Shown: positions 9,070-45,545, numbered from the stretch's first letter. The stretch is DNA of 64,000 bases from Armatimonadota bacterium (GCA_029553475.1 JAKPKV010000186.1:7808-71807); one strand, 5' to 3'. Numbers and translations: made by a program. Notes: generated by a model not told the origin, from the letters alone.

Positions 9070-9426
9070 TATGTGTAGCGGGCCGTCACGTGGTCTTTTG
9101 CCATACGCACCGTAGTGCGCGCCCGCCTGCCTGCCCCGATGGAATCGTGGGTGGCGCGCGGGGGGTGGAAGTGTCCGCGCCGTGCCCGATGTTCACGCCG
9201 CCGGGCGCGAGATCAACTGATAGTGGTTCCTTTGGCGCATGCCCAGCCCGCTCTCGCGTCGACGCTCAAGGACCGGGCGTGTCTGGCCAAATACCTGACG
9301 GGTTACATCAACGAACTCTTCGTCTTCGTGCAGCCCCCCGAGGTGCCGCACGAGAACAACCCGGCCGAGCGGGCCATCCGTCCGCTGGTCATCACCCGCA
9401 AAGTCTGCGGGGAGACATCCCCATCG
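9070..9426 (+). mobile_element. remnant of an IS66-family element: MITE/IS-like terminal motif (9070-9110) followed by a C-terminal transposase fragment (~9289-9426), internally deleted
   Basis: Translated fragment LAKYLTGYINELFVFVQPPEVPHENNPAERAIRPLVITRKV matches the IS66 TnpC C-terminal L-RYL...NN-AERAIRP-AIGRKN region, with no upstream part. The 5' motif GTGTAGCGGGCCGTCACGTGG is shared with other repeat copies in this window. Confidence 0.4.
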
Positions 9427-9735
9427 TCACGGCGTCCGGTCCAGCCGCTCCCACGTAAACGGCACGCGCGCCGTGCGGCCGGGCACCAGCAGGTAGGAAG
9501 CCCCGGTGTTGCTGTCCAGCAGGATGGTCAGCGTCTGCGCGCGGTCGGGAGACGGGAGGGTGAAGAGCTGCCAGCGCCCCTGCATGTAGGTATACACCGG
9601 CAGCGTATACGGCACGGCCGGCGCCACCTGCGGCGTGAGGGGCGTCTGTCCCTGCGCGGGGGTGAGCAGGCTGCCGCCCCATACCCCCAGCGCGAATGTC
9701 GCCAGCAAGGCGCCAACCAGATACCATCGTCGCAT
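9427..9735 (-). CDS. hypothetical small secreted protein (signal peptide)
   Basis: MRRWYLVGALLATFALGVWGGSLLTPAQG gives a signal-peptide-like N-terminus; no recognisable domain. Confidence 0.3.
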   Translation of the reverse strand: MRRWYLVGALLATFALGVWGGSLLTPAQGQTPLTPQVAPAVPYTLPVYTYMQGRWQLFTLPSPDRAQTLTILLDSNTGASYLLVPGRTARVPFTWERLDRTP

Positions 9736-9848
9736 CGCACACCTCGTGAGAGTAGAGTCGTCGCCGATATACCCGTCCGCCGCCCCCGCCGCGCGGCGCG
9801 CATGGCCAGGCTCTTGACATGCGCCGCGCGATTGGTGAGACTGTGCAC

Positions 9849-10604
9849 ATGAAGGCGCTGAACGACGATGCCCTGCGCGCGCGGCTGACCGGCCCCGTGC
9901 ACTACCATGCCGAGGTCACCTCGACGAATGATGTCGCGATGCAGTTGGCCCGGGAGGGCGCGCCGGCGGGCACGCTAGTCTGCGCCGACTTTCAACGCGC
10001 CGGCCGCGGGCGCCGCGGCGCGGCATGGACGGCTCCGGCGGGCACGTCCGTCCTCGCGTCGCTGCTGCTGCGCCCGGGGAAAACGCTGCCGGCGTCGCAC
10101 CTGGCCATTCTCACCGGCGTCGGCCTCGCCAACGGGCTGCGCGCGGAGGACATCGCGGCGCAAATCAAGTGGCCGAACGACCTGATGGTGCGCAACCGCA
10201 AGGTGGCCGGCATCCTGGTGGAGACGGCGGCCGACGCCGTGGTGGTGGGGTTTGGCATCAACTGCGCCATCCCGGAGGAGGCCTTCCCGCCGGCGCTGCG
10301 CGACCGCGCCGGCTCGCTGCACGCGCTGCTGGAGCGCGACATCAGCCGCGAGGCGATCCTCGCCGCCGCCGTCGCGGGGCTGCTGGACGCCGTCGCGCGC
10401 GTGGAAGCCGGCGGCATCATCAAGGTGCTGCTGGAGTGGAACGCTATGAACTGGCTGCGGCGCCGCGAGGTGCGCGTCACCGGCCCGCTGGGCGCGGTGG
10501 AAGGCGATGGGCTCTTCCTGGACGGCCACAAGCTGGTCTTCCACGTCTTCAAAGACGGCGGCGTGGTGCACATGCCGCTGGCCAGCACGGTGGAGGCGCG
10601 CTGA
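9849..10604 (+). CDS. birA: biotin--[acetyl-CoA-carboxylase] ligase
   Basis: ADFQRAGRGRRGAAWTAPAGTSVLASLLLRP and KWPNDLMVRNRKVAGILVE are BPL catalytic-domain signatures. The stop overlaps the rsmD start (ATGA). Confidence 0.8.
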   Translation: MKALNDDALRARLTGPVHYHAEVTSTNDVAMQLAREGAPAGTLVCADFQRAGRGRRGAAWTAPAGTSVLASLLLRPGKTLPASHLAILTGVGLANGLRAEDIAAQIKWPNDLMVRNRKVAGILVETAADAVVVGFGINCAIPEEAFPPALRDRAGSLHALLERDISREAILAAAVAGLLDAVARVEAGGIIKVLLEWNAMNWLRRREVRVTGPLGAVEGDGLFLDGHKLVFHVFKDGGVVHMPLASTVEAR

Positions 10605-11170
10605 TGCGCATCAGTGGCGGACGTTTTCGCGGGCGCATGCTGAAAACGCCGAAGGGTGACGCCACCCGCCCCACCTCGGGCGTGGTGCGCGAGACGCTCT
10701 TCAACATTCTCGCGGCGGAGCTGCCCGGCGCCCGCGTGCTCGACCTCTTCGCCGGCAGCGGCGGCGTCGCCCTGGAGGCGCTGGGCCGCGGCGCCGCCCA
10801 CGCCACGCTGGTGGAGCACGCCCGCCCCGCCCTCGCCTGCCTGAAGGCGAATATCGCCGCCCTCGCCGTCGGTGAGGCGGTGACCGTGATGCCCATCCCC
10901 GTCACCCGCGCCCTCGACGTCCTCGCCCGCCAGGACGCGCAGTTTGACCTCGTCTTCCTCGACCCCCCTTTCGCCGCCGCCGCCGCCTACCAGCAGGCGC
11001 TCGCGACCCTCGCCGGCGCCGAGTTGCTCGCGGAGGATGGCGTCATCGTCGCCCAGCACGACCGCCGCCTGCCCCTCCCCGACGCGGTGGGCGCCGTGAA
11101 GCGGGTGCGCCGGAAAGAGATCGGCGATAACGCGTTGTCTTTCTACCGGCGGGCATCTCTTGCGCGATGA
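10604..11170 (+). CDS. rsmD: 16S rRNA (guanine966-N2)-methyltransferase
   Basis: N-terminus MRISGGRFRGRMLKTPKGDATRPTSGVVRETLFNIL. The DPPF motif (LVFLDPPFAAAA) is present. Translationally coupled to birA. Confidence 0.8.
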   Translation: MRISGGRFRGRMLKTPKGDATRPTSGVVRETLFNILAAELPGARVLDLFAGSGGVALEALGRGAAHATLVEHARPALACLKANIAALAVGEAVTVMPIPVTRALDVLARQDAQFDLVFLDPPFAAAAAYQQALATLAGAELLAEDGVIVAQHDRRLPLPDAVGAVKRVRRKEIGDNALSFYRRASLAR

Positions 11171-11249
11171 GACGTGATAATGGGGATCGTGCGTGATTGT
11201 CATCACGTACCGTTGGTGATACCATTAGTGGTACGTTTGGAGGTATCAC

Positions 11250-11531
11250 ATGGTAAAAACACCCCATATCATTCCCGTCAGCGATCTTCGGCAAGATGCC
11301 GCCGGAGTCATCAAGCGCATGCGTGGTTCGAAAGAGCCTGTCATTGTCACGCAGCGTGGCCGTGCCGCGGCCGTGATGATGAGTGTCGAAGCATACGAAC
11401 GCACGGAACACGAGCGGGAACTCCTGCGCCTGCTCGCGAAAGGTGAACAGGACATCGAAGCGGGCGCGGGCTACACGCTTGCGGAAGTGATGGCGGAAGC
11501 GGACCGCTTGCTTGCGGATGACCAGCGATGA
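11250..11531 (+). CDS. type II antitoxin, Phd/YefM family
   Basis: 93 aa. N-terminus VSDLRQDAAGVIKRMRGSKEPVIVTQRGRAAAVMMSVEAYE is typical YefM. RBS GGAGG. It overlaps the downstream toxin gene by 4 nt. Confidence 0.8.
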   Translation: MVKTPHIIPVSDLRQDAAGVIKRMRGSKEPVIVTQRGRAAAVMMSVEAYERTEHERELLRLLAKGEQDIEAGAGYTLAEVMAEADRLLADDQR

Positions 11532-11821
11532 CACTCAGATTCACCCCGTCGGCAAGGGCACATTTCATCACGGCATTGGCCTACACCCACCAGGATAATC
11601 CCCGTGCGGCACAGAAATTTCGCCAGCATGCCGAAGAGGTGCTCAGCCGCCTCCAACAGTTTCCCGATTCCGGCAGGCTGATACCGGAGTTCCCTGACGT
11701 ACCCTATCGCGAAGTAGTCGTGCCGCCATATCGCTTCTTCTACCGGCGAAAGGACGACACCATTTGGGTTGTCGCCGTGTGGCATGGCGCCCAATTGCCG
11801 ACAATTCCGGACGCGCACTGA
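11528..11821 (+). CDS. type II toxin, RelE/ParE family
   Basis: 97 aa. C-terminus YRFFYRRKDDTIWVVAVWHGAQ (RelE/ParE fold). ATGA overlap with the antitoxin gene. Confidence 0.75.
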   Translation: MTLRFTPSARAHFITALAYTHQDNPRAAQKFRQHAEEVLSRLQQFPDSGRLIPEFPDVPYREVVVPPYRFFYRRKDDTIWVVAVWHGAQLPTIPDAH

Positions 11822-11870
11822 TCCATGCGCTCCGGTTTACCTCTCGCCATCGTACCAGCCCACTGCCGCT

Positions 11871-12230
11871 TTACTCCCCCACCGTGCGCCGGTCCGCGCT
11901 GTCAAACGCGATGGCGAGCATGGCGGTGTCGTCGCCGATATTGCGGGCGTTGTGGTTCAGGTTGGGCGGCACGGTGATGACATCGCCGGCGGACATCACC
12001 ACCTCCTCGTCGCCGTAGGAGTGGACAATCGTGCCCCGCAGCACGTGCAGCACTTCGCTGCAGTTCGGATGGTGGTGCCGGGGATTCGCCTGACCGGGTT
12101 TGATCTCGCAGATGCCCACGGTCATGCTGGCGGAGTTCCCCAGCGCCGCCGACGCCTTCCACACCAGGCGTCCCCATGCCATCTCCTGGACCTGCGCCTC
12201 CGCGGCGGGCAACAGCGTGATCGCCTTCAT
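11871..12230 (-). CDS. cupin domain protein
   Basis: 119 aa with the cupin_2 pattern PGQANPRHHHPNCSEVLHVLRGT...GDVITVPPNLNHNARN. Last gene of a minus-strand operon with a 4-nt overlap upstream. Confidence 0.6.
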   Translation of the reverse strand: MKAITLLPAAEAQVQEMAWGRLVWKASAALGNSASMTVGICEIKPGQANPRHHHPNCSEVLHVLRGTIVHSYGDEEVVMSAGDVITVPPNLNHNARNIGDDTAMLAIAFDSADRRTVGE

Positions 12231-13231
12231 GCTGGCTCCTTTCGCGCGCCGGCGCGCAACGGCTCATACGCCACGTCCACGGCCTCGCCGCGCGCGGCGG
12301 AGGCGAGGATGGCCTCGTAGAGCACCATCGTCTTATAACTCTCGTAGATATTCGATCGCGTGGTGCGCCCCTCGCGCAGCGCGGCGAGAAAATCCACGAT
12401 CTCCGCCAGGTGCCCGGTATCGTTGCCGCTGTCACCCGCGCTGGTGAAGGTCGGCGGTTCGCGCCACTCGGTGCATACGCCGCCTTCCGTCACCCGCCAA
12501 GACGAGGAGTTATGCACCGTCATAAAATTGCCGCCGCGCGCGGTGATCTCCACCTCTTCCGTGGGAATGCTGAATGAGCGGCCATCAGCGAAGGTGAACG
12601 ACCCGACGGCCCCGTTGCGGAACCGCAGGCTGACGGCATACGCGTCAGGCCCTTTATCAAAGGCGAAGACCCGCGCCGCGTCGCCGAACAGATACCCCGC
12701 CAGGTCAATGACATGCAGGCAGAAGTCGAAGAGAAACGAACCGCGCAGCGTATCATTGGGGTATTGCGCCGCGCAATAATCGAAGGAAATGGCGTACAGG
12801 TCATCGGCCGGGAACCGGTCAATCCACGCCTTCGCGCGCGCATAGGCGGCGGCGTAGCGTTTCTTGAAGGCGGTCGTGCAGAGCACCCCGGTTTCTTCCG
12901 ACACCCGGGCGACGGCCAGCGCGGCGGCGGCGGACGGCGCCGGCGGCTTTTCCGTATAGACGGGAATGCCGCGGCGCATGGCCGCCTGCGCGAGCGTCGC
13001 GTGGCGATCCATGTCAATGCAGATGATGACGCCATCAGGCTTCTCGGCATCGAGCATCGTCTCCATCTCCTGGTAGACGGCGCCGCCGAAACGCCGGGCA
13101 TTGCGCTCGGCCTTCTCCCGGTCCAGGTCGCACACGCCGACCAACTCGGCGCCGGCCAGGCCGATGTAGGGATAAATGCGGCGGGAAGACAGGTTTCCCG
13201 CGCCGACGATGCAAAGCCGTGGATCAGACAT
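12227..13231 (-). CDS. Gfo/Idh/MocA family oxidoreductase
   Basis: N-terminal Rossmann CIVGAGNLSSRRIYPYIG; central EKP motif (VYTEKPPA). Confidence 0.75.
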   Translation of the reverse strand: MSDPRLCIVGAGNLSSRRIYPYIGLAGAELVGVCDLDREKAERNARRFGGAVYQEMETMLDAEKPDGVIICIDMDRHATLAQAAMRRGIPVYTEKPPAPSAAAALAVARVSEETGVLCTTAFKKRYAAAYARAKAWIDRFPADDLYAISFDYCAAQYPNDTLRGSFLFDFCLHVIDLAGYLFGDAARVFAFDKGPDAYAVSLRFRNGAVGSFTFADGRSFSIPTEEVEITARGGNFMTVHNSSSWRVTEGGVCTEWREPPTFTSAGDSGNDTGHLAEIVDFLAALREGRTTRSNIYESYKTMVLYEAILASAARGEAVDVAYEPLRAGARKEPA

Positions 13232-13997
13232 ACCCGGCCTCCTCCAGCAACCGCTCCGAAAACACACGTGCCGCACCGAGCCAGTGCAGCGTCTGCTCGA
13301 TGCCGGCGCCCTCCACTTCCATCTCGACGACGAATTCCCCGTCATAGCCGATGGCCTTCAGGCGGGCAAACAGGCCCCGCAGATCGAGCTCCCCTTCGCC
13401 GAACGGCACTTCCTTGCCGGCTTTCATGTCGCGAAAATGCACGAGTCCGATGGTGCTGCGGGCGCTGAGCAAGTCAAAACCATCCTCCCAGCGCTCCCCG
13501 GCGCGCACGAACTGCCCCACCTCCAGCAGCGTCTGCATGCGCGGGTCGTTGATGCCCGCCAGCACTTCACGAAAATCATCGCTGGTGGAAATCGGCGTGC
13601 CGTGGTGATTCTGCAGGACGGGTATCACCCCCCACCCATCAATGGCCTCCAGATACTGCGGCGCGGCCGCGATATACGTCGGCCGGCTCGTGGCTTTGAA
13701 CAGCACCCGTGTGACGCCCAGCGCCCGCGCGAAACGGGTCGCCGCGATCGCCCGGTGGAGCGTGGCGTCCAGCTCGCGCGCATCCACCGGCGGCAGGTGC
13801 ATGGAGCAGAAGGCGAAGCCGTACCGGTCGCCCAGCGCCCGGTAGGCCGCCGGGTCGTGATCGAGCGAGACGGCAGAGGCGGCCCAACTGGTGAACACCT
13901 CGAACTTGCGATACCCCAGCGCGGCATACCGCCGCAGCGCCTCCTCCAGGGGAAGCGTCGGGGTGCTGCAGGGACTGACCACCAGGCGATCGGTCAT
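13224..13997 (-). CDS. sugar phosphate isomerase/epimerase (xylose-isomerase-like TIM barrel)
   Basis: Pattern LGYRKFEVFTSW ... GVIPVLQNHHGT ... DGEFVVEME is characteristic of AP-endonuclease-2 / xylose-isomerase-like TIM proteins. Confidence 0.65.
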   Translation of the reverse strand: MTDRLVVSPCSTPTLPLEEALRRYAALGYRKFEVFTSWAASAVSLDHDPAAYRALGDRYGFAFCSMHLPPVDARELDATLHRAIAATRFARALGVTRVLFKATSRPTYIAAAPQYLEAIDGWGVIPVLQNHHGTPISTSDDFREVLAGINDPRMQTLLEVGQFVRAGERWEDGFDLLSARSTIGLVHFRDMKAGKEVPFGEGELDLRGLFARLKAIGYDGEFVVEMEVEGAGIEQTLHWLGAARVFSERLLEEAGYV

Positions 13998-14016
13998 GTA
14001 CGGCTCCATCCCCACC

Positions 14017-14568
14017 CTACTGCGGCGGCGAAAAGATCGCGAGATACGTCACGCGCTCGGTGAGCGGGGTGAGATCATGCGTGTCGAGCGCGTTGAAATA
14101 CAGGCTGTCGCCGGGGCGCAGATGGTACGTTTGGTCGCCCACGCGATACGCCATCTCGCCCTCCAGCACATAGACGAACTCATCGCCGGCATGCGTGAGA
14201 CCGTGCGGCGTCACCTGTCCCCGCCTGGCGGTGATGAGAAATGGCTGCATCGTCTTGTCCGTGCGCCCGGCCGCGAAGGCATAATACGCATAGCCCTTAT
14301 CCGTCCGCGGCCAATCCGCCGCGTGGAGCGCCTCGGCGGGGGTATACACGGTGGCGGCCGTCTCCTCCTCATCCAGCAACGCCGACGCCGTCACCCCGAG
14401 GGCGCGGGCGATCTTCGTCAACATGGCCAGCGTTGGCTGGCATTTGCCCGCTTCGATTTTGGACACCAACCCCTTGGTACAGCCGCACGCCTCGGCAATC
14501 TGCTGCTGCGTGCGCTGTTGCTGGCGGCGTATCGTGCGTATGCGCAAACCGAGGATACTCATCGGCAT
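14017..14568 (-). CDS. XRE-family transcriptional regulator with C-terminal cupin domain
   Basis: HTH LRIRTIRRQQQRTQQQIAEACGCTKGLVSKIEAGKCQPTLAMLTKIARALGV plus cupin HAGDEFVYVLEGEMAYRVGDQTYHLRPGDSLYF. First gene of the 14568-11871 minus-strand cluster. Confidence 0.75.
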   Translation of the reverse strand: MPMSILGLRIRTIRRQQQRTQQQIAEACGCTKGLVSKIEAGKCQPTLAMLTKIARALGVTASALLDEEETAATVYTPAEALHAADWPRTDKGYAYYAFAAGRTDKTMQPFLITARRGQVTPHGLTHAGDEFVYVLEGEMAYRVGDQTYHLRPGDSLYFNALDTHDLTPLTERVTYLAIFSPPQ

Positions 14569-14667
14569 TTCAACCTCGTTGAATTATATGCTACACCGTT
14601 GAAGCCGTCAAATCATCGCCGGCGTGCTGCATCAGCGAAAGCCTTCGGAACCGCTTGAACGTTTATC

Positions 14668-14900
14668 GCGGCACATAGTATCATGGCATGTAGTTGTACT
14701 GGGCCGTCACGTTGCACCTTGCTCTGTAGTCCGCGCCCTCCGCGGCGCGTGGTGACGCATTTTTACCCCGTGCCCGATGACGGTGGTGTCGGACACAGGT
14801 GCGCATGTCGGTCACACGCGCCGCGGAGGGCGCGGACTACCCCGGGCTGGTTTGCTACACAGAGTACACCGTGACAACCCGCGGCACGTAGTATCATGGT
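14668..14900. repeat. MITE-like palindromic repeat element (copy A)
   Basis: Flanked by near-identical direct repeats CGCGGCAC(A/G)TAGTATCATGG at 14668-14690 and 14879-14900. Internal 25-bp inverted repeat TAGTCCGCGCCCTCCGCGGCGCG / CGCGCCGCGGAGGGCGCGGACTA. Terminal motifs GTACTGGGCCGTCACGTTGCACCTTGC and GTGACAACCCGCGGCAC are shared with copies at ~9075, 18140 and 45313. Confidence 0.5.
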
Positions 14901-14933
14901 CCGGCAGCACGATGGGGAATGGAGGAGTACGCC

Positions 14934-16004
14934 ATGACGTTTGTCGCTGAACCGGCCGCGGACGGCCCGCAGGCACGCCCCACCCTTGGCGCTATCCGCT
15001 GGGATGCCTGGAGCGGCGGCGGGGTTACCCGGCAAGTCGAGCGCACCCTCGCGCCCGCGAAATACCATGCGCGATTGCCCTGGTTTGCCGAGGTGTCAGG
15101 TGACGGCAGCGTGCGTATTGATAGCAACCGGCAGGAGATCATGGACCGGGAGATCGCGTATGCCGCCGATGCCGGCCTGGACTACTGGGCCTTCCTGCTC
15201 TACCCGGATGGGACCGACATGAGCGAGGCGCTGCGCCGGTATCGTGCCAGCCGCCTGCGCCGCCGGCTGAATTACTGCGTGATCCTGCACAACGCCTTCG
15301 GGGTGCAGGACGAGGCATGGCCGCGGGAGCGCGACCGCGCGGTGGCGCTGCTGCGCGAGCCGGGATATCAGCGCGTGTGCGGGGGCCGTCCGCTGGTGTA
15401 TGCCTTCGCGGTGCGCCATCACGGCGCCTTTCCGGCGGCGCGTTTCACCGAGTTCCGCCAGGCCGCGCGCGCAACGGGCGTTGATCCCTATTGCGTCTCC
15501 ATGGGCTGGAGCCCGGCGGACGAGTATGCACGGGCCGCCCCGTTGGGTTTCGACGCAGTCTCGCACTACGCCTGCGGCAGCGACGATGCCACGTTTACGG
15601 CGTTGTGCCGGCGTGTCGAAACCGGCTTCTGGGGGCAGGCGGCGGATGCGCGCGTTCCCTATGTTCCGCTGGTTACCACCGGTTGGGAGAAGAATCCGCG
15701 CAAGGATCACCCGGTCTCCTGGGAGTTGGACCACGATTATCACCAGCAGGCCGTCTTTCCCTCGATTGCCGCGCCGGCGGAGATTGTCGCCCACCTCGGC
15801 CGCGCTTGCGCCTTCGTGAACCACCATGCCGACCTGTGCCCCGCCGACACGGTCATCGCCTACGCGTGGAACGAGCATGACGAAGGCGGCTGGCTGTGCC
15901 CGACCTGGACGCCGGAGGGGACGCCGAACACCGAGCGCCTGGACGCCATTCGCGCGCTGCTGGGAAACGGCGACGGCCGGCGGCGGACGGCGCGCGTGCC
16001 GTGA
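14934..16004 (+). CDS. hypothetical protein, possibly a TIM-barrel glycoside-hydrolase-like enzyme
   Basis: AIRWDAWSGG ... LVTTGWEKNPRKDHP ... AYAWNEHDEGGWLCP is reminiscent of GH-like families, but I cannot assign a family. GGAGGA lies 7 nt before the ATG at 14934. Confidence 0.4.
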   Translation: MTFVAEPAADGPQARPTLGAIRWDAWSGGGVTRQVERTLAPAKYHARLPWFAEVSGDGSVRIDSNRQEIMDREIAYAADAGLDYWAFLLYPDGTDMSEALRRYRASRLRRRLNYCVILHNAFGVQDEAWPRERDRAVALLREPGYQRVCGGRPLVYAFAVRHHGAFPAARFTEFRQAARATGVDPYCVSMGWSPADEYARAAPLGFDAVSHYACGSDDATFTALCRRVETGFWGQAADARVPYVPLVTTGWEKNPRKDHPVSWELDHDYHQQAVFPSIAAPAEIVAHLGRACAFVNHHADLCPADTVIAYAWNEHDEGGWLCPTWTPEGTPNTERLDAIRALLGNGDGRRRTARVP

Positions 16005-16005
16005 A

Positions 16006-18120: not shown

Positions 18121-18139
18121 CGCCAGTTCTCCTACTACT

Positions 18140-18470
18140 CTGCGTGTACTGGATCGTCACGTTGCACCTTGCCGCGTCCATCGTCGGGAACGCCGTCCCT
18201 GGCGTTCCGGTGCGCATTCTGTCGAGCCGCTCTCGGTCACCAGCAGACTCGCGCCCGCATCGGCCCACCCCTGCGGCGACCCGGAACGCCACGGAGGGCA
18301 TTCCCGACAATTAGGGGTTGGGGATGAGGGATTGGGCGCGCGCTACAGGCGGTTATCCTGATACGCACACGACAACGTAACGACCCCCTAACCCCTAATC
18401 CCCAACCCCTCACCCCGACCAGCGGTCGGTGCGCAGAGCACGAGACAGCGTGACAACCCGCTGCACTCTG
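18140..18470. repeat. MITE-like palindromic repeat element (copy B, larger) with internal G-rich/C-rich inverted repeats
   Basis: 5' end GTGTACTGGATCGTCACGTTGCACCTTGC and 3' end CAGCGTGACAACCCGCTGCAC match copy A termini. Internal TTAGGGGTTGGGGATGAGGGATTGGG is inverted as CCCCTAACCCCTAATCCCCAACCCCTCACCCC. Confidence 0.45.
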
Positions 18471-18547
18471 CGCACTATACCACAAATTCATGCGCATGCG
18501 CGAGGGGTGAAAAAGGAAACCGCCTCCCTTTCCGCGAAATGCAGTCA

Positions 18548-18748: not shown

Positions 18749-18762
18749 TGATGGAGTTCACC

Positions 18763-20526: not shown

Positions 20527-20614
20527 CGACGGACGGGGCACCATACGATGCCCCGTCCGTCGTCAGCGCGCACTCGCGCGATTATCCGCATCAACGCCGG
20601 TCAGCCGCGCCGCA

Positions 20615-24522: not shown

Positions 24523-24535
24523 ATGGCGTGATGTC

Positions 24536-33818: not shown

Positions 33819-33840
33819 TCAGCACCGAGAGGAACCCAGC

Positions 33841-34932: not shown

Positions 34933-35023
34933 CCCCGCGGCCAACGCGCCTCCCCGCGCGGTGATCCGCGTGGGGAGGGCGCGATTGAGCGGGGGGATAT
35001 ACGCCGCGGCGGGCCGCCGCCCG

Positions 35024-36094: not shown

Positions 36095-36290
36095 GGGCAA
36101 ATCCTTCATTCAAGCAGTCTTGCAAAGCTTCGCCCTTCGGAGCCGAGTCCCTGCCGTTCCACGACATTGGGTTGTGGACCGTGCAGCCATCACATCATGC
36201 TGACGGGCGCGCCTATTGTCACCATTTCCCCTGCCTGGCCAGCGCGTTCTCCGCTACCATACCGGTATCACCATCCGAAAGGAGCGATCC

Positions 36291-36935
36291 ATGACGTTCA
36301 TAGCGAAAGAGTTCCCCTCGGTGCAGGGGGTGGACGGGCTGTCCCGGCGGCAGCAGGAGGAGCATTACGCGCTCTACACGGGCTACATCACGAAATGCAA
36401 CGAGCTGACGCGCAAGCTCCGCGAGGTGGACGTGAGCAAGGGCAATGCCACCTACGCTGACGCGCGGGAGATCAAGATCGAGCTGGCGTACGCGCTGGAC
36501 GCGGTGAAGAGCCACGAGCTCTACTTCGGCGCGCTGACGCAGGGCGCGGGCGGCACGCCGGTGGGCAAGACCGCCGAGTTCATCGAACGCGACTTCGGCG
36601 GTTTTGGCGCCTTCCGCGCGGAGATGACCGGCACGGTGATGAGCGCCCGCGGCTGGGCGTGGCTGGCGTATGACCGCTACGACGAGATGCTGCACATCTA
36701 CATCGGCGACACCCACCATACCTACCCCATCTGGGACGCCGCCCCCATCTTCGCCTTCGATGCCTATGAACACGCCTACTTCATGGACTACGGCACCGCG
36801 CGCGCCCAATTCATTGACGCCGTCTTCCGCAATCTCGACTGGAGCGTCATCGAAGACACGCTCCAGTGCGCCCTCCGCGGCGACGCGGTGACGAAAGCCC
36901 GCTGGGAACCGGGGGCGAGCGCGCAAGCGGCGTAA
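36291..36935 (+). CDS. Fe/Mn superoxide-dismutase-like protein (divergent N-terminal domain)
   Basis: C-terminal domain GWAWLAYDRYDEMLHIYIGDTHHTYP...FAFDAYEHAYFMDYGTARAQFIDAVFRNLDWSVIE matches the SOD D-x-WEHAYY pattern. The N-terminal His pairs are partly degenerate. AAGGAG RBS. Confidence 0.55.
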   Translation: MTFIAKEFPSVQGVDGLSRRQQEEHYALYTGYITKCNELTRKLREVDVSKGNATYADAREIKIELAYALDAVKSHELYFGALTQGAGGTPVGKTAEFIERDFGGFGAFRAEMTGTVMSARGWAWLAYDRYDEMLHIYIGDTHHTYPIWDAAPIFAFDAYEHAYFMDYGTARAQFIDAVFRNLDWSVIEDTLQCALRGDAVTKARWEPGASAQAA

Positions 36936-36944
36936 CGCGTTCGG

Positions 36945-37096
36945 TCACCGGGGGTCACCTCTCCCCCCGCCCCCCTCCCCTAAGCGGGGAGGGGGAGTGA
37001 GTTGAGATGCGAAAACGTGTTGTCTTCTCTCTCCGTTTCTCCCCCTCCCCGCTTAGGGGAGGGGGCCGGGGGAGAGGTGACCCCCGATGACGGGCT
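36945..37096. repeat. MITE-like hairpin element with ~47-bp GC-rich terminal inverted repeats
   Basis: GGGGGTCACCTCTCCCCCCGCCCCCCTCCCCTAAGCGGGGAGGGGGAG and its reverse complement flank a 41-bp spacer. A solo copy lies at 18604-18650. The element ends exactly at the pyr promoter -35. Confidence 0.45.
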
Positions 37097-37124
37097 TGAC
37101 GTCCCGCGCCCGCGTTGGTATAAT
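37096..37124 (+). promoter_or_regulatory. sigma70-type promoter of the pyr operon: TTGACG-N17-TATAAT
   Basis: Read directly: -35 at 37096-37101, -10 at 37119-37124. Confidence 0.55.
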
Positions 37125-37150
37125 GCGCTGACACTCGACCTTTTAACGGG

Positions 37151-38889
<1,739 letters not shown>

Positions 38890-38893
<4 letters not shown>

Positions 38894-40167
38894 CGTTAGC
38901 GCTCAAAGATGTGGTACATCAGGGGGAACTGGTCTCGCTGCTCGTTGAAGGCACTGAAGTCTCCACCGTGCGCGATATCCCCGGCGGTGTTGACGTGCTT
39001 GATGGCCGCGGCATGGAAGCGGTTCCCGCGTTGTGGGACGCGCACGTCCACTTCCGCGAACCCGGCAATACCGACGCCGAAGACCTGCTTTCCGGCGCCC
39101 GCGCGGCTGCCGCCGGCGGGTATGGCGCCGTCTGCTGCGAGCCGAATACCCGACCGGTGATGGATACCCTCGACGCGATTCAGGCATTTGACCGCCGCGT
39201 CGAAGCATTGGGCATCCCCATCGGCGTCTACCCGAAGGCGGCTTTGACAAGAGGGCAAGACGGCGCGGAGCTCGTTGACATCGAAGCCATCGCGCCGGAA
39301 GTCACTGCCTTCAGCACGGATGGCGAACCCGTCGTGGACCGTGAGCTGTTGATTGAAGCATTCCGCCGCACGTTCGCATTTGACGAAGAGCAGCCGCGCG
39401 AGATCCACGCCCATTGCGAGGAAACGCCTCGTTCGCACGACCGCGTCGTCGCCGCATTGGGCGATGGGCCCTACCTCGCCCGCGAGACCGAGATCGTGCG
39501 CCTGCACCTTGAAGCGCTCGAAGCCGCCGGCATGGGTTACCTGCGCATTCAGCACGTCAGTCTCCCCGAAACGGTGGAACTGGTCAAGGCGTTCATGTCG
39601 CGCATGCTCGATAGCCCCGGATTATCTCCCATCCTGGTCACGATGGAAGTGACGCCGCACCACCTGCGGCTCTGTCAGGATGATATTCCTGTTGTCGAAG
39701 GCCAACCCGATCCACATTGGAAAATGAATCCGCCGCTGCGCAGCGCGAAGGCACAGCGGGGACTGCTGGCGCACCTGTGGGATTTTGCATATATCGCCAC
39801 TGACCATGCGCCGCATACGCCCGCGTCGAAAGCGCGTCCGTGGGATGATGCGCCGTTCGGCGTCATTGGGCTTGAGACAGCTTTTGGCGCGCTGGCGTCA
39901 TTTGAAGACAATCCGCATTTGCCGATGCAGCGGCAACTGCTGCTCGATCGTTTATCGCCGTCGAATAAAGTGATGTCCCCGGACTCCTCACGGTTCGCGC
40001 AGGGGATTACCCTCATTGACTGGGATCACGTCTGGACGGTAGACCCCGACCGATTCTACTCCAAGTCGCGCAACTGCCCCTTCGCCGGGATGACGTTCCG
40101 CGGGAAGCCGATGTATACCATTGCTGGCGGCCGGGTGGTGATGGCCGAGGGCGAGGTGTTGTTTTGA
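38890..40167 (+). CDS. pyrC: dihydroorotase (ATCase-associated type)
   Basis: DAHVHFREPG ... TDHAPH amidohydrolase metal-ligand motifs. ATGA overlap with pyrB. Confidence 0.75.
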
Positions 40168-40192
40168 ACTTGCAACCCGGAATCTGGAACCG

Positions 40193-41338
40193 ATGATGAA
40201 TGCAAAGCTTGTACTGAGTGATGGCACCGTCTTCACCGGCCTTTCCATCGGGGCGCCGGTGACCCACGTCGGCGAGGTGGTCTTCAATACCTCAATGACC
40301 GGGTATCAAGAGATGTTGACGGACCCGAGTTACCGGGGGCAGATTCTCACCCTCACCTATCCGCTCATCGGCAACTACGGGGTGATGGCGGAGGATTGGG
40401 AATCGGGCGAGATTCAGGTGCGCGGCTTCGTGGTGAAGCAGCTCTGCGACGCCCCCAGCAACTGGCGCGCCACCGGCGCGCTGGACGCCTTCCTGAAGGA
40501 GCGCGGGGTGCCGGGCATCGCCGGGGTGGATACGCGGGCGCTCACCCGCCTCATCCGCGCGGGCGGCGTGATGATGGGCGCGCTGAGCGGCGAGGATCTG
40601 TCGACCGAGGAGGTGCTGGCGCGCATCGCCGCGGAGCCGAACTACGGCGCCAATGATTTCGTGAGGGAGGTGAGCGGCGGGCGGACATACCCGTGGACGG
40701 AGCCGGCCCAGGCGCCCTACGATACGCTGAAACGGTTCGTTGCCCCGGAGCCGCTGCGCGTGACAGTGGTGGACTACGGCGTGAAGCGCAACATCCTGCG
40801 CCTGCTCGCCACCCGCGGCTGCGCGGTGCGCGTGGTGCCGTGCGAGGCGTCGCCGGCGATGATGCTGGAGGGCCGGCCGGACGGCATCGTCTTCTCGCCC
40901 GGCCCCGGCGATCCGGCGCTGCTGGATTACGCCCGCGAGAGCATGAAGGCGGTGGTGGGCGTGGGCATCCCAATTCTGGGCATCTGCCTGGGGCACCAGC
41001 TCATGGCGCACGCGTTCGGCGGGCGCACCTTTAAATTGAAGTTCGGCCACCGCGGCAGCAACCACCCGGTGAAAGATTTGGTGCGCGCCGGCACGGTGCA
41101 CATCACCGCGCAGAATCACGGCTACGCGGTGGACGCCGACAGCATCGCCGGCAGCGGCCTGGAGGTGTCGCATATCAACCTGAACGACGGCACGGTGGAA
41201 GGCATGGTCCATCGGACCCTGCCCATCATGACGATGCAGTTTCACCCGGAGGCCAGCGGCGGCCCGCGTGACACGGAGTATATGTTCGACGAATACGTCC
41301 GCCTGGTCGCCGAAAAGCGCGCGGCGGTGAAGGTGTAG
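40193..41338 (+). CDS. carA: carbamoyl-phosphate synthase small (glutaminase) subunit
   Basis: GICLGHQLMAHAFGG is the class-I glutamine amidotransferase Cys motif, on a CPSase small N-terminal domain. Confidence 0.85.
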   Translation: MMNAKLVLSDGTVFTGLSIGAPVTHVGEVVFNTSMTGYQEMLTDPSYRGQILTLTYPLIGNYGVMAEDWESGEIQVRGFVVKQLCDAPSNWRATGALDAFLKERGVPGIAGVDTRALTRLIRAGGVMMGALSGEDLSTEEVLARIAAEPNYGANDFVREVSGGRTYPWTEPAQAPYDTLKRFVAPEPLRVTVVDYGVKRNILRLLATRGCAVRVVPCEASPAMMLEGRPDGIVFSPGPGDPALLDYARESMKAVVGVGIPILGICLGHQLMAHAFGGRTFKLKFGHRGSNHPVKDLVRAGTVHITAQNHGYAVDADSIAGSGLEVSHINLNDGTVEGMVHRTLPIMTMQFHPEASGGPRDTEYMFDEYVRLVAEKRAAVKV

Positions 41339-41631
41339 AGAATGAAAGGCTATATGCACGGTACCACTGGGACTGACTGCGCATGGCCGTATTGGCAAGC
41401 CGTGGCATCAGTGCGCCCCCGTGGCGGGGTGAGCGCAGTCGTGCCATGCGTAGTCTGTCCCTTCAACGCTGGGACCAAACTATCAAGATTTCACGCAGGG
41501 ATGGCACCGCCGTCCGGACGGCAAGGGGGCATCGGATGATTGTCACCGCATGACCCACCGACGACCGGATGCAGAAGAAAGCCAGAGAGAGGAGGTAGAC
41601 CGCGTTCCCCCCTTGATACACGGGAGCAGCA

Positions 41632-42595
41632 GATGACACAGGAACACATCGAAGACACGACACCGTCCATCGAGACGCCGGCGACAACCATGATCGGCAG
41701 CCTGCTGCCGCGGCTGCGGGCGCTGCTGATGACCTGGCCCGACGTGCGGCTGGCCTATTTCCAGCCCGCGCCGGCGGACGATCAGCTGTGCCTGCTGGGG
41801 CCGGACCGCGCGCGGGTGATCCTCTGCTTCGCGCGCAGTGTCTCCGGCGAGCACATCAGCAAGCGGCTGGCGAAGATTCGCCGGCACTGCAAACCGCTGA
41901 CGCGGGGCGAGGTGGAGTTCCTGGATATCGAGGACCTAGACTACCGCGAGGCCTGCGAGGTGGCGTTCAACGCGCAGGTGGCCTACGGCGCGCTGGAGAG
42001 CGCCGAGCGCGACCGGCTCTATCGGTATAACGTCTTCCTGGAGTGGAACGCCAGCAAGCGGATACAGGGCACGCGGCAGGACACCCCGCCGGTGCTGGCC
42101 CCCTCGCTGGAGCGCCCGCCGACGGTGGTGCCGGTGCAAAAGTTTCTCAGGCCGCTCTACCGGCAGATGAAACTGCTGGACGGCTACCTGCGCGAGCTGC
42201 GGCGCATTGCCGAAATGGCGCCGAACGAGTTCACCGCCGACGCGGCAAACAAAGGACAGGCGGAGTCCTGCCTGTTGAAAGGCATTCAGAGCGTCATCCT
42301 GGTGACGTTGAGCATCGTGCATCGGAACATGCGGCTGGCCGCGCGCGATTATCGCGACCTGTTCCTGCTGCTGCCGCTGTATGGCCTGATGCCGCGCGAG
42401 CGCGCGAACAAGCTGGCGAAATGCGCCGAGCTGCGCGACCGCCTCATGTTCCAATACGACGACGTCACCGCGCTGGAGGTGCACGGGCACGTGGAAGCCG
42501 TGCTGGATACGCTGGCCGACTTCAAGAGCTATATGCTCGAGTGGCTATTCGATAGATATTATGATCCGACCGGCGAGTTGGTCCAAACAGAATAA
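41632..42595 (+). CDS. hypothetical protein with C-terminal DUF86 / HepT-like (HEPN) domain and a possible degenerate nucleotidyltransferase N-terminal domain
   Basis: C-terminus LKGIQSVILVTLSIVHRNMRLAARDY ... AELRDRLMFQYDDV resembles HepT R-x4-H-x-Y, with the His replaced. GGGAG RBS. Confidence 0.35.
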
Positions 42596-42608
42596 GCGAG
42601 GCCAGACG

Positions 42609-43103
42609 GTGCGCGCCATCGCGACGGCACTGGTTGAACACCACGGCCACCTGCTGCTCTGTCAGCTTGCGCGCGGTGAATACGCCGGTTTCTGGCTGCT
42701 GCCGTCGGCGTCGGTAGATGACGGGACGGTGTTGCAGACCGCGCAGCGGATGCTGCCGGAGCGCACCGGCTACACCGCGACGGCGCTGGAGCTGGTGAGC
42801 GTGGTTGAGGAACCGAAGACGAACGCGTTGAGCCTGCGTTTCGTCTTTGCCGCCGCCGTGGCGGACCCGCAGGCCGAGCACAGCGATACGGATATCCTGC
42901 AGGCGCGTTGGTTCAGCCGCGCCGCGGCGCGGGAGCTGCTGGCGGAGCGGGACGTGGTGCCGAATCTCGGCGTGATGTCGCTGGTGCGCGCCTGGGCGGA
43001 CGGCATCACCCCGCGGCCGCTGGAGTTGCTGGACGAGAGCGCGCCGTGCCCATGCGGGTCAGGCTACGGCTTCCGCGGGTGTTGCGGATGGGATAGCAAA
43101 TAG
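42609..43103 (+). CDS. NUDIX hydrolase with C-terminal SEC-C metal-binding motif
   Basis: NUDIX-fold body; terminal CPCGSGYGFRGCCG. GTG start with GAGG RBS. Confidence 0.5.
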   Translation: MRAIATALVEHHGHLLLCQLARGEYAGFWLLPSASVDDGTVLQTAQRMLPERTGYTATALELVSVVEEPKTNALSLRFVFAAAVADPQAEHSDTDILQARWFSRAAARELLAERDVVPNLGVMSLVRAWADGITPRPLELLDESAPCPCGSGYGFRGCCGWDSK

Positions 43104-43134
43104 CCCCAGCGGGGCGTGTGCGTGAGGAACACGA

Positions 43135-44820
43135 ATGCCAAAGCGAACCGATCTGAAAACAGTCATGGTCATCGGCTCCGGCCCGATCGTCATCGGGCAG
43201 GCGGCGGAGTTTGACTACGCCGGCACCCAGGCCTGCCGCTCGCTGCGCGAGGAGGGCCTGTCCGTGGTGCTGGTGAACAGCAACCCGGCCACCATTATGA
43301 CGGACATGAACATGGCCGACCGGGTGTATGTGGAGCCGCTGACGGTGGAGTTCCTCACCCGCATCATCGCCAAGGAGCGCCCGGACGGCCTGCTGCCCAC
43401 GCTGGGCGGGCAGACGGGCCTGAACCTCGCCACCAAGCTGGCGAAGAAAGGCGTGCTAGACGAGTACCGCGTGGAGCTGCTCGGCACGCCGCTGGAGTCC
43501 ATCGAAAAGGCGGAGGACCGCGAGCATTTCAAGGCGCTGATGCAGGAGATCGGCGAGCCGGTGCCGGAATCGGCCATCGTCGAGCGCATGGACGAGGTGG
43601 AAGAGTTCCTCGACGAGCTGGTGCGCGTCGAGGCGAAGACCGGCCAGCCCGTCTACCCCATCATCGTGCGGCCTGCCTACACGCTGGGCGGCACCGGCGG
43701 CGGCATCGCCGACACCTGGGACGAGCTGCGCGACATCTGCGTGCGCGGCTTCCGCATGTCCATGACCTCGCAGTTGCTGCTGGAGCGCTGCCTGCTCGGC
43801 TGGAAAGAGATCGAGTACGAGGTGATGCGCGACGGCGCCGACAACTGCATCACCATCTGCAATATGGAGAATTTCGACCCGATGGGCATCCACACGGGCG
43901 ACTCCATCGTCATCGCCCCCAGCCAGACGCTCACCGATAAAGAGTACCAGATGTTGCGCACGGCGTCGCTGAAGATCATCCGCGCGCTGGGCATCGAGGG
44001 CGGCTGCAACGTGCAGCTCGCGCTGGATACCAACTCCTTCCGCTACTACGTCATCGAGGTGAATCCGCGCGTGAGCCGCTCCTCGGCGCTGGCCTCCAAG
44101 GCCACCGGGTACCCCATCGCCCGCGTGGCGGCGAAGATCGCCGTGGGCCTGCATCTGGATGAAATCCAGAACGCGGTGACGAAGCGCACGCTGGCCTGTT
44201 TTGAGCCCGCGCTGGATTACTGCGTGCTGAAGATCCCGCGCTGGCCTTTTGACAAGTTCAACTTCGCCAACCGCCGCATCGGCACGCAGATGAAGGCCAC
44301 CGGCGAGGTGATGGCCATTGACCGCACCTTCGCGGGCGCGCTGATGAAGGCGGTGCGCTCGCTGGAGATCGGGCAGCTCGGCCTGGCGATGAAAGGCATC
44401 GGCGAGTGGTCGGAGATGAAGCTGGAAGAGGTGCTGCGCCACGCCACCGACGAGCGCCTCGCCGCCATCTGCGAAGCCTTCCGCCGCGGCATGGACGTGC
44501 CCGAGGTGCGGCAGCTCACCAACGTGGACCCGTGGTTCCTGCGGCAGGTGAAAGACCTGGTGGAGTTGGAATTGGAGTTCCGCGCCCACTTCGGCCTGCC
44601 GGATGAAGCGATGCTGCGCCGCGCCAAAGAGTGGGGCTTCAACGACCACTACCTGGCCGAGCTGTGGGGCGTGAAAGAGGCGGAAATCCGCGACCTGCGC
44701 CGCCACTGGGGCATCCAGCCCGTCTACAAAATGGTGGATACCTGCGCCGCCGAGTTCGAATCGGAGACGCCGTATTTCTACTCGACGTACGACCGGGAGA
44801 ATGAATTGGCCGTGGTATAA
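43135..44820 (+). CDS. carB: carbamoyl-phosphate synthase large subunit, N-terminal half (carboxyphosphate domain plus oligomerisation domain)
   Basis: [34 protein letters not shown]... It ends [14 protein letters not shown] exactly at the boundary between the two homologous halves of full-length CarB. Confidence 0.85.
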
Positions 44821-44839
44821 TGGGCGCGAGGTCAGTTCC

Positions 44840-45193
44840 ATGCAAAAAACCACCAGGAATATCGCACGACGATTCACACCACGCCAATGGGAGGTGATCT
44901 CCGCCGTGAAGGCAGCCGCCCGACATGTACTGCCGGACGCGGACATCATCCTCTATGGCTCCCGCGCGCGCGGCACCGCCGGGCCGGAGTCCGACTGGGA
45001 TTTCCTGATCCTCACTGACGAGACAGTGACCGTGGCACTGGAAGAGACGATGCGCAAAGCGATGGATGCCCTATCGCTGGAGATCGCGGAGGTGATCAGC
45101 GCATTTCTCGAAAATCGCCAGACCTGGAAAACACCATTGTTGAAAGCAACACCCTACCATCAGGCGATCGAACAGGAGGGAATCGCGGTATGA
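44840..45193 (+). CDS. nucleotidyltransferase-domain protein (MNT-type antitoxin-like)
   Basis: Minimal NTase motif GSRARGTAGPESDWDFLIL (GS-x9-D-x-D). GAGG RBS. Confidence 0.65.
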   Translation: MQKTTRNIARRFTPRQWEVISAVKAAARHVLPDADIILYGSRARGTAGPESDWDFLILTDETVTVALEETMRKAMDALSLEIAEVISAFLENRQTWKTPLLKATPYHQAIEQEGIAV

Positions 45194-45312
45194 GCGACGA
45201 GCGAGCCACGCTGATACGCTACCGATTGGAACGAGCGCACGAAGCACTGGAAGAGGCGGACGTATGCTGGAAGATGGCACATTACAATTCATACGTCAAC
45301 CGGCTCTATTAC
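45190..45312 (+). pseudogene. HEPN-domain gene N-terminal fragment, truncated by insertion of MITE copy C
   Basis: MSDERATLIRYRLERAHEALEEADVCWKMAHYNSYVNRLYYAC resembles a HEPN helix-1/2 pattern ending in RLYYA. The reading frame then runs into the repeat terminus TGTAGCGGGTCGTCACG. Confidence 0.4.
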
Positions 45313-45545
45313 GCATGCTGTAGCGGGTCGTCACGATGTACCTTGTTCTTCGTATCAACTCAAGCGTCTTGTAGGGAATGTCCCGCCGTGGCATTCCAGA
45401 AGCGGTGCGCGGTGGAGTCCGCGACCAAACGCTATCGTCCCGTGCAGCGTGCCGATTCGCGACGGTCGGGAATGCCACGGCGGGACATTCCCTACCAGCG
45501 CTGATACCGATGTCGCAGCCGTGGTTGCCCGCGGCGACACGGTTT
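45313..45545. repeat. MITE-like repeat (copy C) with a 27-bp perfect internal inverted repeat
   Basis: Terminus TGTAGCGGGTCGTCACGATGTACCTTG. Internal GTAGGGAATGTCCCGCCGTGGCATTCC is inverted as GGGAATGCCACGGCGGGACATTCCCTAC. 3' end CCGTGGTTGCCCGCGGCGAC. Confidence 0.4.

Follow-up and report, generated by a model that had tools for sequence, protein, structure and literature searches.

Four sites in this stretch of Armatimonadota DNA share a common left end (positions 9074, 14695, 18145 and 45319 of the window, i.e. the whole stretch of 64,000 nucleotides that was analysed); one of them lies near the remains of an IS66-family transposase gene and another lies inside a HEPN toxin gene. What sort of repeat this is, and which transposase has moved it, is the question that the locus raises. 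The left ends were recovered by a repeat search of the window, in which CGTCACGWTGYACCTTG occurs three times while 0.02 occurrences are expected by chance. When the window was scanned with the 17-nt core, the four left-end sites were found together with two 3' ends in reverse orientation (14870-14886 and 18449-18465), which makes six matches at no more than three mismatches, as compared to 0.23 expected from shuffled sequences. The terminal inverted repeats are 27 bp long, TGTAGCGGGTCGTCACGWTGYACCTTG, with the consensus form TGTAGCGGGTCGTCACG[A/T]TG[T/C]ACCTTG ... CAAGGTRCAWCGTGACGACCCGCTACA, and the alignment of 40 unique ends is conserved up to position 27. Two complete copies (A and B), one copy cut at its 3' end (C) and one 5' fragment make up the family in the window (Table). 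The copies, of 192, 321 and ~182 bp, stay below the ~600 bp taken as the upper size of a MITE, are all non-coding and carry no transposase gene. The sites listed in the initial annotation were retained, with the limits refined to those of the Table (~45500 for the end of copy C).

Table. Coordinates of the repeat family and associated features in the window
Feature	Position	Strand	Remarks
Element 5' fragment	9074-9156	+	left repeat 9074-9100, then subterminal sequence; remainder lost
IS66-family transposase relic, C-terminal core, ~50 codons	9265-9414	+	150 bp, truncated on both sides
20-nt direct repeat CGCGGCAC[A/G]TAGTATCATGG at copy A	left 14667-14686, right 14880-14899	+	19/20 identical
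Copy A left flank, TGTAGT	14689-14694		right flank CGTAGT 14887-14892, 5/6 identical
Copy A, complete, 192 bp	14695-14886	+	left repeat 14695-14721, right repeat 14860-14886
Copy A inner palindrome arms	14726-14751 and 14815-14840		
Exact 7-bp direct repeat CTCTGCG around copy B	18138-18144 and 18466-18472		
Copy B, complete, 321 bp	18145-18465	+	left repeat 18145-18171, right repeat 18439-18465
Copy B inner palindrome arms	18180-18215 and 18276-18311		
Nested insert in copy B, 105 nt	18309-18413	+	missing in L158, L110 and L126 (alignment)
MNT nucleotidyltransferase partner gene, intact	44840-45193	+	Pfam NTP_transf_2, E=4.6e-10
HEPN toxin gene, codons 1-43	45190-45318	+	stops exactly at copy C left end
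Copy C, 3'-truncated, ~182 bp	45319-45500	+	left repeat 45319-45345
Copy C inner palindrome arms	45368-45400 and 45466-45498		
HEPN C-terminal remnant	45510-45587	+	corresponds to residues 108-133 in the intact HEPN; in-frame fusion to Dabb gene

The family extends well outside the window. Scanning metagenomes with the extended 5' pattern revealed copies at 30 further loci, in which paired inverted ends are 93-320 bp apart; dispersed copies occupy ~17 distinct loci at unrelated sites, and one more is found just beyond the window (L158:5796-5968). The orientation relative to neighbouring genes is variable. The existence of a family with at least four copies was thus confirmed both by the significance of the shared ends in the window and by the metagenome copies: these are miniature, non-coding, inverted-repeat transposable elements (MITEs), a further example of a known and ordinary sort of mobile DNA. 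The 17-mer CGTCACGWTGYACCTTG is too short a pattern for a scan of the genome collection, in which all of the 105 matches listed were attributable to chance; three Fervidibacter matches fall within conserved coding sequence. There were 0 matches to the end pattern in viral contigs, and an artificial minimal element gave no BLAST match against plasmids.

The flanks of the elements carry short duplications. Exact 6-bp duplications border six independent elements (ACTAAT twice, CCTGGT, GCTAGA, CATACG and GCTACC), whereas chance alone would give 0.005 in the 19 elements. No clean duplication is seen in about two thirds of the paired elements, many of which lie in repetitive or palindromic flanks. 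The 40 unique junctions yield the target consensus NCTAGN, with C in 21/40, T in 28/40, A in 28/40 and G in 22/40 at positions -5 to -2. Copy A is located between two divergent genes, an HTH/cupin gene on the minus strand and a gene of 361 residues on the plus strand, and can be aligned from end to end, at 91% identity (175/192), with an element of an unrelated locus (L116:2925-3117) that is flanked by an exact 6-bp duplication. Read in the 6-bp register, the hexamers on both sides of copy A are a decayed target duplication. Direct repeats had also been pointed out for this copy, and a 20-nt repeat is indeed present; it does not represent a simple target duplication, since its right copy takes in 7 nt of the terminus of the element itself. 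A promoter-like site (TTGAAC, 18 nt, TATCAT) has its -10 box within the left copy. Copy B, again, separates divergent genes, sialate O-acetylesterase-like (minus strand) and ulvan-lyase-like (plus strand), and its target duplication is exact over 7 bp. Empty sites were sought for copies A and B: the other assemblies of the same population all carry copy A, and the nearest homologue of the flanking 704-residue gene is only 69% identical, so that there is no orthologous empty site to compare. A simple 6-bp cut accounts neither for the 20-nt repeat at copy A nor for a long flanking repeat seen at L128.

The initial annotation had proposed that copy C disrupts a HEPN gene, and this proved correct. 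The reading frame is interrupted after codon 43, and 33 of the 43 residues encoded upstream are identical to an intact 133-residue HEPN protein (PF05168) at the syntenic locus L146. This 5' part gives a weak Pfam HEPN match (profile positions 2-34, E=0.032), and a PDB search with the 43-residue fragment returned no match. The adjacent MNT gene is intact and its homologues adjoin an intact HEPN gene. On the other side of copy C, tblastn with the L146 HEPN protein aligned the C-terminal remnant in the correct order and position (9/26 residues identical, 16/26 similar), and a JGI gene call of 137 residues begins there. A degenerate right end at ~45521-45540, previously taken as the 3' terminus of copy C, was rejected, as this stretch encodes the HEPN C-terminus; copy C is therefore devoid of a right end. 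A deletion has removed its last ~45 nt with the right repeat, and homology to its relatives stops after ACCAGCG. Copy C inserted behind codon 43 of the toxin gene of the MNT-HEPN pair, and its right end was lost in this later deletion, along with HEPN codons 44-107. The idea that the copy moved recently holds only in part: its left repeat matches the consensus at 27/27 positions, but the right end has since been deleted and the truncated state is the same in 4/4 assemblies covering the site.

The ends themselves point to a parent transposon family. The elements run from TGT to ACA, with T, G and T at positions 1-3 conserved at 92-97%, and in 31 of the 40 ends ACG(A/T)TG occupies exactly positions 15-20. 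When we compared 12 ends of IS481-family elements (six elements, five from annotated plasmids and ISLxc2 from PMC2516522), all 12 displayed TGT at positions 1-3 and A(C/G)GTT(G/C) at positions 15-20. In published descriptions of the IS481 family (PMC3053399, PMC2516522), the ends start with TGT, the duplication is of 6 bp at NCTAGN and the stop codon of the transposase lies in the target itself; the elements that we fetched are flanked by GCTAGG, CCTAGG and TCTAGT. In the MITEs, a frame that would end at the target TAG is open through the right repeat (..N/I-V-T-T-R-Y-S before the stop) with no transposase gene attached, in parallel to the C-termini of real IS481-family transposases (NLSEQHS, NNVPGHHT and NLLTLHS, each followed by the stop). 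Because of the 6-bp duplications, the NCTAGN target, the TGT start and the ACG(A/T)TG box at positions 15-20, we consider that the window copies are MITEs with IS481-type ends, probably moved in trans by an IS481-family transposase; the end architecture and the target logo alone suffice to infer the parent family. Such a DDE (rve-type) enzyme, encoded elsewhere in the genome or in the population, would bind the terminal repeats and make a 6-bp staggered cut. Insertion of the unit duplicates an NCTAGN-like target over 6 bp, or occasionally 7 bp. Copies A and B both entered divergent promoter regions.

The MITEs resemble IS481 of Bordetella pertussis, ISLxc2, IS1649, IS5564 and ISRel2 in their TGT/ACA ends, the A(C/G)GTTG-type box at positions 15-20, the 6-bp NCTAGN duplication and, apparently, a frame through the right end that would stop at the target TAG. 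They differ from these in being 93-320 bp long and lacking a transposase gene, in having longer and better conserved terminal repeats (27 bp) and an interior of long palindromes, and in their host, an uncultured Armatimonadota bacterium. Besides, no autonomous partner was found: the extended-pattern scan of the metagenomes gave short elements only, and the viral and plasmid searches gave no autonomous element with these ends. An IS481-type tblastn had no match in the window or in the metagenome and neighbouring loci among those fetched for it, the gene table lists no transposase in the 8.7 kb past the window end, and a protein search with a synthetic profile (conserved IS481 C-terminus plus the end-encoded peptide) returned no candidate sharing three words. 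IS1182 was considered as the parent and rejected: the IS1182 transposase beside an element end at L119 belongs to an element with its own ends, TAGGAGTCCGTCCGAGTAAC, that merely inserted into the MITE.

Each of copies A, B and C contains a long inverted repeat with 60-65 nt between its arms. The initial annotation had described these as perfect repeats of 25-30 bp, different in each copy. They do differ, and only copy A has a perfect one (arms of 26 nt, 100% complementary), the arms being of 36 nt and 83% in copy B and of 33 nt and 94% in copy C. The interiors are long hairpin-forming palindromes that move along with the unit, and their differences reflect both distinct subfamilies and acquired nested insertions. 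An example of the latter was seen by aligning copy B with uninterrupted relatives: in its insert, G-rich/C-rich heptamer tracts in inverted arrangement enclose a solo, degenerate end of an element (18376-18392), with CCCGAC on either side (18303-18308 and 18414-18419) and a heptamer array, CCCCTAA x4.6, at 18385-18416.

Since the 5' fragment lies close to an IS66-family relic, the elements had been suggested to be deletion derivatives of an IS66 element that use its terminal repeats and are moved by its transposase. The relic itself is real, being matched by Pfam DDE_Tnp_IS66 (PF03050, E=8e-8, profile positions 233-274 of 284) and by NCBIfam transpos_IS66 (E=3.9e-10, positions 304-349 of 387), and 191 bp separate its start from the left end upstream, at 9074. 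IS66 elements have ends of 20-30 bp starting with GTAAGCG and 8-bp duplications (PMC11946415, PMC12888890); the MITE end TGTAGCGGG is loosely like this start, and a published IS66 end, GTAAGCGTCCGGCGAACTCACCTT, likewise finishes with ACCTT (PMC12888890). However, the MITEs duplicate 6 bp and not 8, for when an 8-bp register was tried on L116 and L126 the central six bases alone matched and the outer positions differed; their target is NCTAGN, and their ends start with TGTAGCG and carry the IS481 box (ACGTTG), which is absent from the published IS66 end. The fragment (core TGTAGCGGGCCGTCACG, 1 mismatch in 17) shares 77% identity along 84 nt with an end of the L121 element, and this homology does not go beyond 9156, which leaves 109 bp up to the relic. 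The relic is a C-terminal piece positioned after the left end, the 17-nt core scan found no partner right end downstream of it, no IS66 genes are enclosed, and no IS66 sequence accompanies the elements at other loci. An IS66 origin is largely refuted and we regard it as highly improbable: the relic adjoins the element fragment, is separate and stands outside the repeat family, and the fragment would be a decayed copy that lies beside it by chance. A different, possibly undescribed DDE family with TGT ends (e.g. IS21 or IS3-like) could instead have moved the MITEs, the likeness to IS481 being convergent. The cognate transposase was not found in the loci searched, and the IS21-family ISLxc1 does combine TGT ends with a 6-bp duplication (PMC2516522), but its end, TGTCTGTGTCACTGTTAGCG, lacks the box and it has no NCTAGN target. 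As the 6-bp duplication, NCTAGN, TGT ends, box at positions 15-20 and an open frame that would end in the target TAG all coincide, as they do in the IS481-family elements examined, we judge this alternative unlikely.

The palindromes invite two further readings. REP sequences begin with GTAG, and so do the outer end (T-GTAG...) and the inner arms (GTAGTCCGCG... and GTAGGGAACGCC...) of the elements, with inner modules of 26 + 63 + 26 nt that approach the size of a REP doublet. A RAYT (Y1, IS200/IS605-like) enzyme may have spread them as REP/REPIN-like palindromes, or recombination may have amplified the palindromes, but exact 6-bp duplications flank the outer unit and Y1 enzymes make none; tblastn for RAYT/Y1 in the window and loci gave noise only, which is a weak negative. 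For the unit as a whole we hold this to be very unlikely; the inner modules alone could be REP-like. The elements could also be structured non-coding RNA genes or cis-regulatory hairpins, conserved for their fold and not mobile, in line with their very stable RNA folds (z-scores from -5.2, in copy A, to -6.5, in copy B), the pairing kept between arms that differ from copy to copy, and the position of copies A and B just upstream of genes. Against this, target duplications and sharp ends occur at unrelated loci, one copy is inside a coding gene, the orientation towards neighbouring genes is not constant, and the movement of subfamilies as whole units explains why the arms differ, as seen from the match between copy A and L116. 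Rfam returned no family match for the copies (tRNAs alone reach the gathering score, and the sole sub-threshold match, mir-3151 at E=0.84, falls on the heptamer hairpin), and a purely RNA-based explanation has hardly any probability left.

As MITEs with IS481-type ends, the elements compare with other bacterial MITEs, e.g. MITECca01 from ISCca4 (PMC9769881), in being multicopy and small and in coding for nothing, as well as in their terminal inverted repeats, their target duplications and their strong hairpin potential. They are also, like these, mostly intergenic and now and then gene-disrupting. Correia, RUP and Nezha elements are further bacterial MITEs. The present family differs in its sequence, in its parent type, which appears to be IS481, and in its interior of modular nested palindromes with heptamer tandem tracts at many copies. 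With it, a MITE family that is active, or was so recently, is on record for the Armatimonadota of anaerobic-digester-type metagenomes, an uncultured and poorly known phylum, and an attractive but wrong inference from the adjacency of the IS66 relic is corrected. Several metagenome contigs end at these repeats, which also occupy divergent promoter regions and have put out of action the toxin of a toxin-antitoxin pair; annotators of such genomes should mask and name them.

Heptamer tandem tracts accompany many of the copies. In sequence, the tracts of copy B (TTAGGGG/TTGGGGA/TGAGGGA) and L116 ((GGGATTA)n) are like the heptamers of GGGNATC type, rich in G, that are repeated in Xanthomonas and Nostoc (PMC4692102), which are also non-coding tandem 7-nt G-tract units, often about four in number. 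Unlike those, the tracts form inverted pairs around or inside the elements, and many are not of the G-tract type (GTGAGTA, CTTCTCA, AACCAGG). It is conceivable, if rather improbable, that IS481-type ends, REP-like GTAG hairpins and inverted heptamer tracts form a modular, self-nesting palindromic system in Armatimonadota, repeatedly combined and moved together, in which hairpins or heptamers might guide the insertion, or the inner modules might be subject to a second, undescribed mechanism of mobilisation. A new mechanistic question arises only if the nested heptamer/palindrome modules prove independently mobile. Such combinations may be seen in the heptamer-armed insert of copy B, between its CCCGAC flanks, and at L124, where heptamers and palindrome arms lie on both sides of a LuxR-type gene.

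Reading of individual sites, combined with repeat detection over the whole window, identified a four-member family sharing a common 5' end, which bears out the dispersed four-copy repeat proposed in the initial annotation. The window has three occurrences of the 17-nt motif CGTCACGWTGYACCTTG (0.02 expected), and scanning with the outer 17-nt core recovered the same sites together with two reverse-oriented ends, a total of 6 matches with at most three mismatches versus 0.23 in shuffles. In every copy a long inverted repeat, its arms 60-65 nt apart, occupies the interior, and folding is far stronger than in shuffled controls (z-scores of -5.2 to -6.5). Proteins identical to those of the window, which derives from an uncultured Armatimonadota bacterium, are present in a 122.6-kb NCBI MAG contig and in the JGI metagenome 3300010344. 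The end scan also gave a weak match, with 5 mismatches, to a 17-nt palindrome pair (CGTAACGCTACGCTTCA ... TGAAGCGTAACGTTACG), apparently an intergenic hairpin without relation to the elements.

Coordinates of the elements and neighbouring features (bare numbers, window; L-numbers, fetched loci outside the window)
Feature	Coordinates	Remark
Palindrome pair	1868-1920	
5' fragment	9074-9156	element homology ends at 9156
IS66 transposase relic	9265-9414	C-terminal piece
Promoter-like site	14655-14684	TTGAAC, 18 nt, TATCAT
Copy A	14695-14886	reverse-oriented end 14870-14886
20-nt repeat, right copy	14880-14899	first 7 nt lie in copy A
Copy B	18145-18465	reverse-oriented end 18449-18465
Copy B target duplication	18138-18144, 18466-18472	CTCTGCG, exact 7 bp
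Copy B nested insert	18309-18413	105 nt
Split carbamoyl-phosphate synthase genes	43135-47548	
Copy C	45319-~45500	right end lost
HEPN residues 108-133	45510-45587	fused in frame to Dabb
Core of copy B insert	L116:2594-2772	within another element
Relative of copy A	L116:2925-3117	
IS1182-family insertion	L119:205-1860	NCBIfam 365 bits
Heptamer and palindrome arms	L124:4310-5380	flank about 880 bp
Further palindromic repeat	L124:5255-5345	
Fifth copy	L158:5796-5968	about 2.8 kb past the window's end

Metagenomes were scanned with the extended pattern TGTANNGGNNCGTCACGWTGYACCTTG, and the 30 loci returned, once oriented and read, define the element. The terminal inverted repeat is 27 bp long, TGTAGCGGGTCGTCACG(A/T)TG(T/C)ACCTTG, the opposite end being its reverse complement ending in ...CGTGACGACCCGCTACA, and paired ends are spaced by 93 to about 320 bp. 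Among 40 unique ends, conservation is at least 70% through position 27, positions 10 and 18 excepted, and then collapses; the smallest elements, in L129 (93 bp) and L117 (114 bp), extend scarcely beyond the two repeats. An element found at a locus of no relation matches copy A with 91% identity across all 192 bp, and therefore the inner palindrome moves with the unit.

The elements are transposons. Exact 6-bp direct duplications lie right outside TGT...ACA in 6 of the 19 distinct paired elements, against a chance expectation of 0.005: ACTAAT at two different loci, CCTGGT, GCTAGA, CATACG and GCTACC. The duplication flanking copy B is exact and 7 bp long, and the flanks of copy A, TGTAGT and CGTAGT, match at five of six positions. 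When an 8-bp register was tried on L116 and L126, the match was limited to the central six bases; the outer T and A are therefore part of the element. Clean duplications are absent from many copies, which lie in heptamer or palindromic flanks. The MITE interpretation of the initial annotation is upheld.

As to their parentage, the MITEs had been proposed to be IS66 derivatives using the terminal repeats of that element, and there is a genuine IS66 transposase relic positioned after the left end of the 5' fragment. We rejected this origin: IS66 elements have GTAAGCG ends and 8-bp duplications, whereas the MITEs have TGT ends and 6-bp duplications; element homology stops short of the relic; the window end scan detected no right end after it; and at no other locus read does IS66 sequence lie beside an element. 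The likeliest reading is that fragment and relic are both mobile elements in decay, sharing one intergenic region. The ends resemble instead those of the IS481 family, which produces a 6-bp NCTAGN duplication, has ends starting with TGT and places the transposase stop codon within the target (PMC3053399; PMC2516522). Eight IS481-family elements were fetched from annotated plasmids and end sequences taken from five; with ISLxc2 (from PMC2516522) added, 12 ends of six elements were compared in register. Every one of the 12 opens with TGT (positions 1-3) and carries A(C/G)GTT(G/C) at 15-20, readable flanks being GCTAGG, CCTAGG and TCTAGT. The transposase ends at TAG just past the right end in 6/8 fetched elements, with C-termini ..NLSEQHS*, ..NNVPGHHT* and ..NLLTLHS* in those with matching ends. 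MITE ends have TGT at 1-3, and 31/40 have ACG(A/T)TG at exactly 15-20; at positions -5 to -2 of 40 unique junctions the target profile is C (21/40), T (28/40), A (28/40), G (22/40), that is NCTAGN; and in the right repeat the frame that would run to the target TAG stays open, reading ..N/I-V-T-T-R-Y-S*. The 15-20 box is missing from both an IS21-family end (ISLxc1) and an IS66 end, and the MITE ends were therefore assigned to the IS481 type. No autonomous partner was found by tblastn searches covering the window plus the metagenome and neighbouring loci then available, in the gene table of the 8.7 kb past the window's end, by the exact-pattern metagenome scan, in the viral contigs or plasmids searched, or by a synthetic-profile protein search. 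The copies in the window and the metagenomes make up a real MITE family of Armatimonadota, not named before, whose ends are of the IS481 type.

The initial annotation noted a different perfect inverted repeat in each copy. Three subfamilies have common ends and distinct inner palindromes (GTAGTCCGCGCCCTCC..., GTAGGGAACGCC..., GGTGGTTGAGTAGGCA...), and copy B contains a nested insert, missing from its relatives and bordered on both sides by CCCGAC, in which inverted tracts of G-rich (TTAGGGG-type) and C-rich (CCCCTAA-type) heptamers surround a solo degenerate element end. Subfamily membership and nesting thus explain the differing repeats, and compensatory evolution of an RNA is not needed. The insert's core recurs in another element. 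The same genome has a fifth copy, of the GTAGGGAACGCC subfamily, whose neighbours are an adh_short gene on one side and a 259-residue gene on the other; inverted heptamer tracts (GGGATTCGGGGTTAGGGG ... CCTAACCCCTAATCCCCAATCCCC) flank this copy.

Copy C disrupts the HEPN toxin gene, as originally reported. In a syntenic relative (L146-L149) the order is the N-terminal half of carB, MNT (112 residues), an intact HEPN (133 residues, PF05168), Dabb, three more genes and the C-terminal half of carB. HEPN residues 1-43 are kept in the window (33/43 identical to that relative) and break off precisely where copy C starts, at 45319; residues 108-133 resume downstream, and alignment with uninterrupted relatives places the end of element homology before them. 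The element therefore inserted after codon 43, and a later deletion took its last ~45 nt with HEPN codons 44-107. The earlier description of the copies was accurate save for the 3' terminus of copy C; CCGTGGTTGCCCGCGGCGAC, so designated, was rejected, as it lies past the element homology and codes for P-W-L-P-A-A-T of the HEPN C-terminal remnant. L137, which is more closely related (85% identity at the nucleotide level), has no MNT-HEPN pair at all. The carbamoyl-phosphate synthase large subunit is encoded by two split genes in the window, L137 and L146-L149, and the content between them varies: Dabb only in L137; MNT-HEPN-Dabb, DUF2461 and another gene in L146; MNT, the broken HEPN with the element in it, and Dabb in the window.

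Just upstream of copy A there is a promoter-like site, whose -10 region recurs downstream within the 20-nt repeat; the right end of the element provides a GTGACA hexamer 15 nt upstream of this duplicated -10 region, and the pair could be a putative hybrid promoter for a 361-residue gene. In L119 an IS1182-family insertion sequence with its own ends (TAGGAGTCCGTCCGAGTAAC) has inserted just within an element's terminal repeat, the element's remainder being absent on the far side.

Tandem 7-nt repeats (GTGAGTA, CTTCTCA, AACCAGG, GGTTTCT and others) flank many elements; the sole heptamer array of the window is the one within copy B. The flanking repeats form reverse-complementary arms in L108, L109, L111 and L125, centring the element in a larger palindrome, and direct tracts in L107, L112 and L129; in L129 the element with its 6-bp duplication is inserted into a pre-existing tract. 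The tracts may be mobile themselves or preferred targets. In L124, heptamer arms and GGTGGTTGAGTAGGCA palindrome arms enclose a stretch with no TGTAG terminal repeats. Evidently the inner palindrome can occur independently of the element; a 94-residue ORF there resembles, by look of sequence, a LuxR/GerE-type HTH. In L120/L135 the segment enclosed by the perfect 26-bp inner arms runs in the opposite direction to that in L112 and L116, with outer ends in the same orientation, which suggests a flip by recombination between the arms. A further palindromic repeat, CCCGGATTATTCATGAACCGC ... GCGGTTCATGAATAATCCGGG, adjoins heptamer tracts upstream in L108, downstream in L114 and in L124, and is probably another small repeat family of these genomes.
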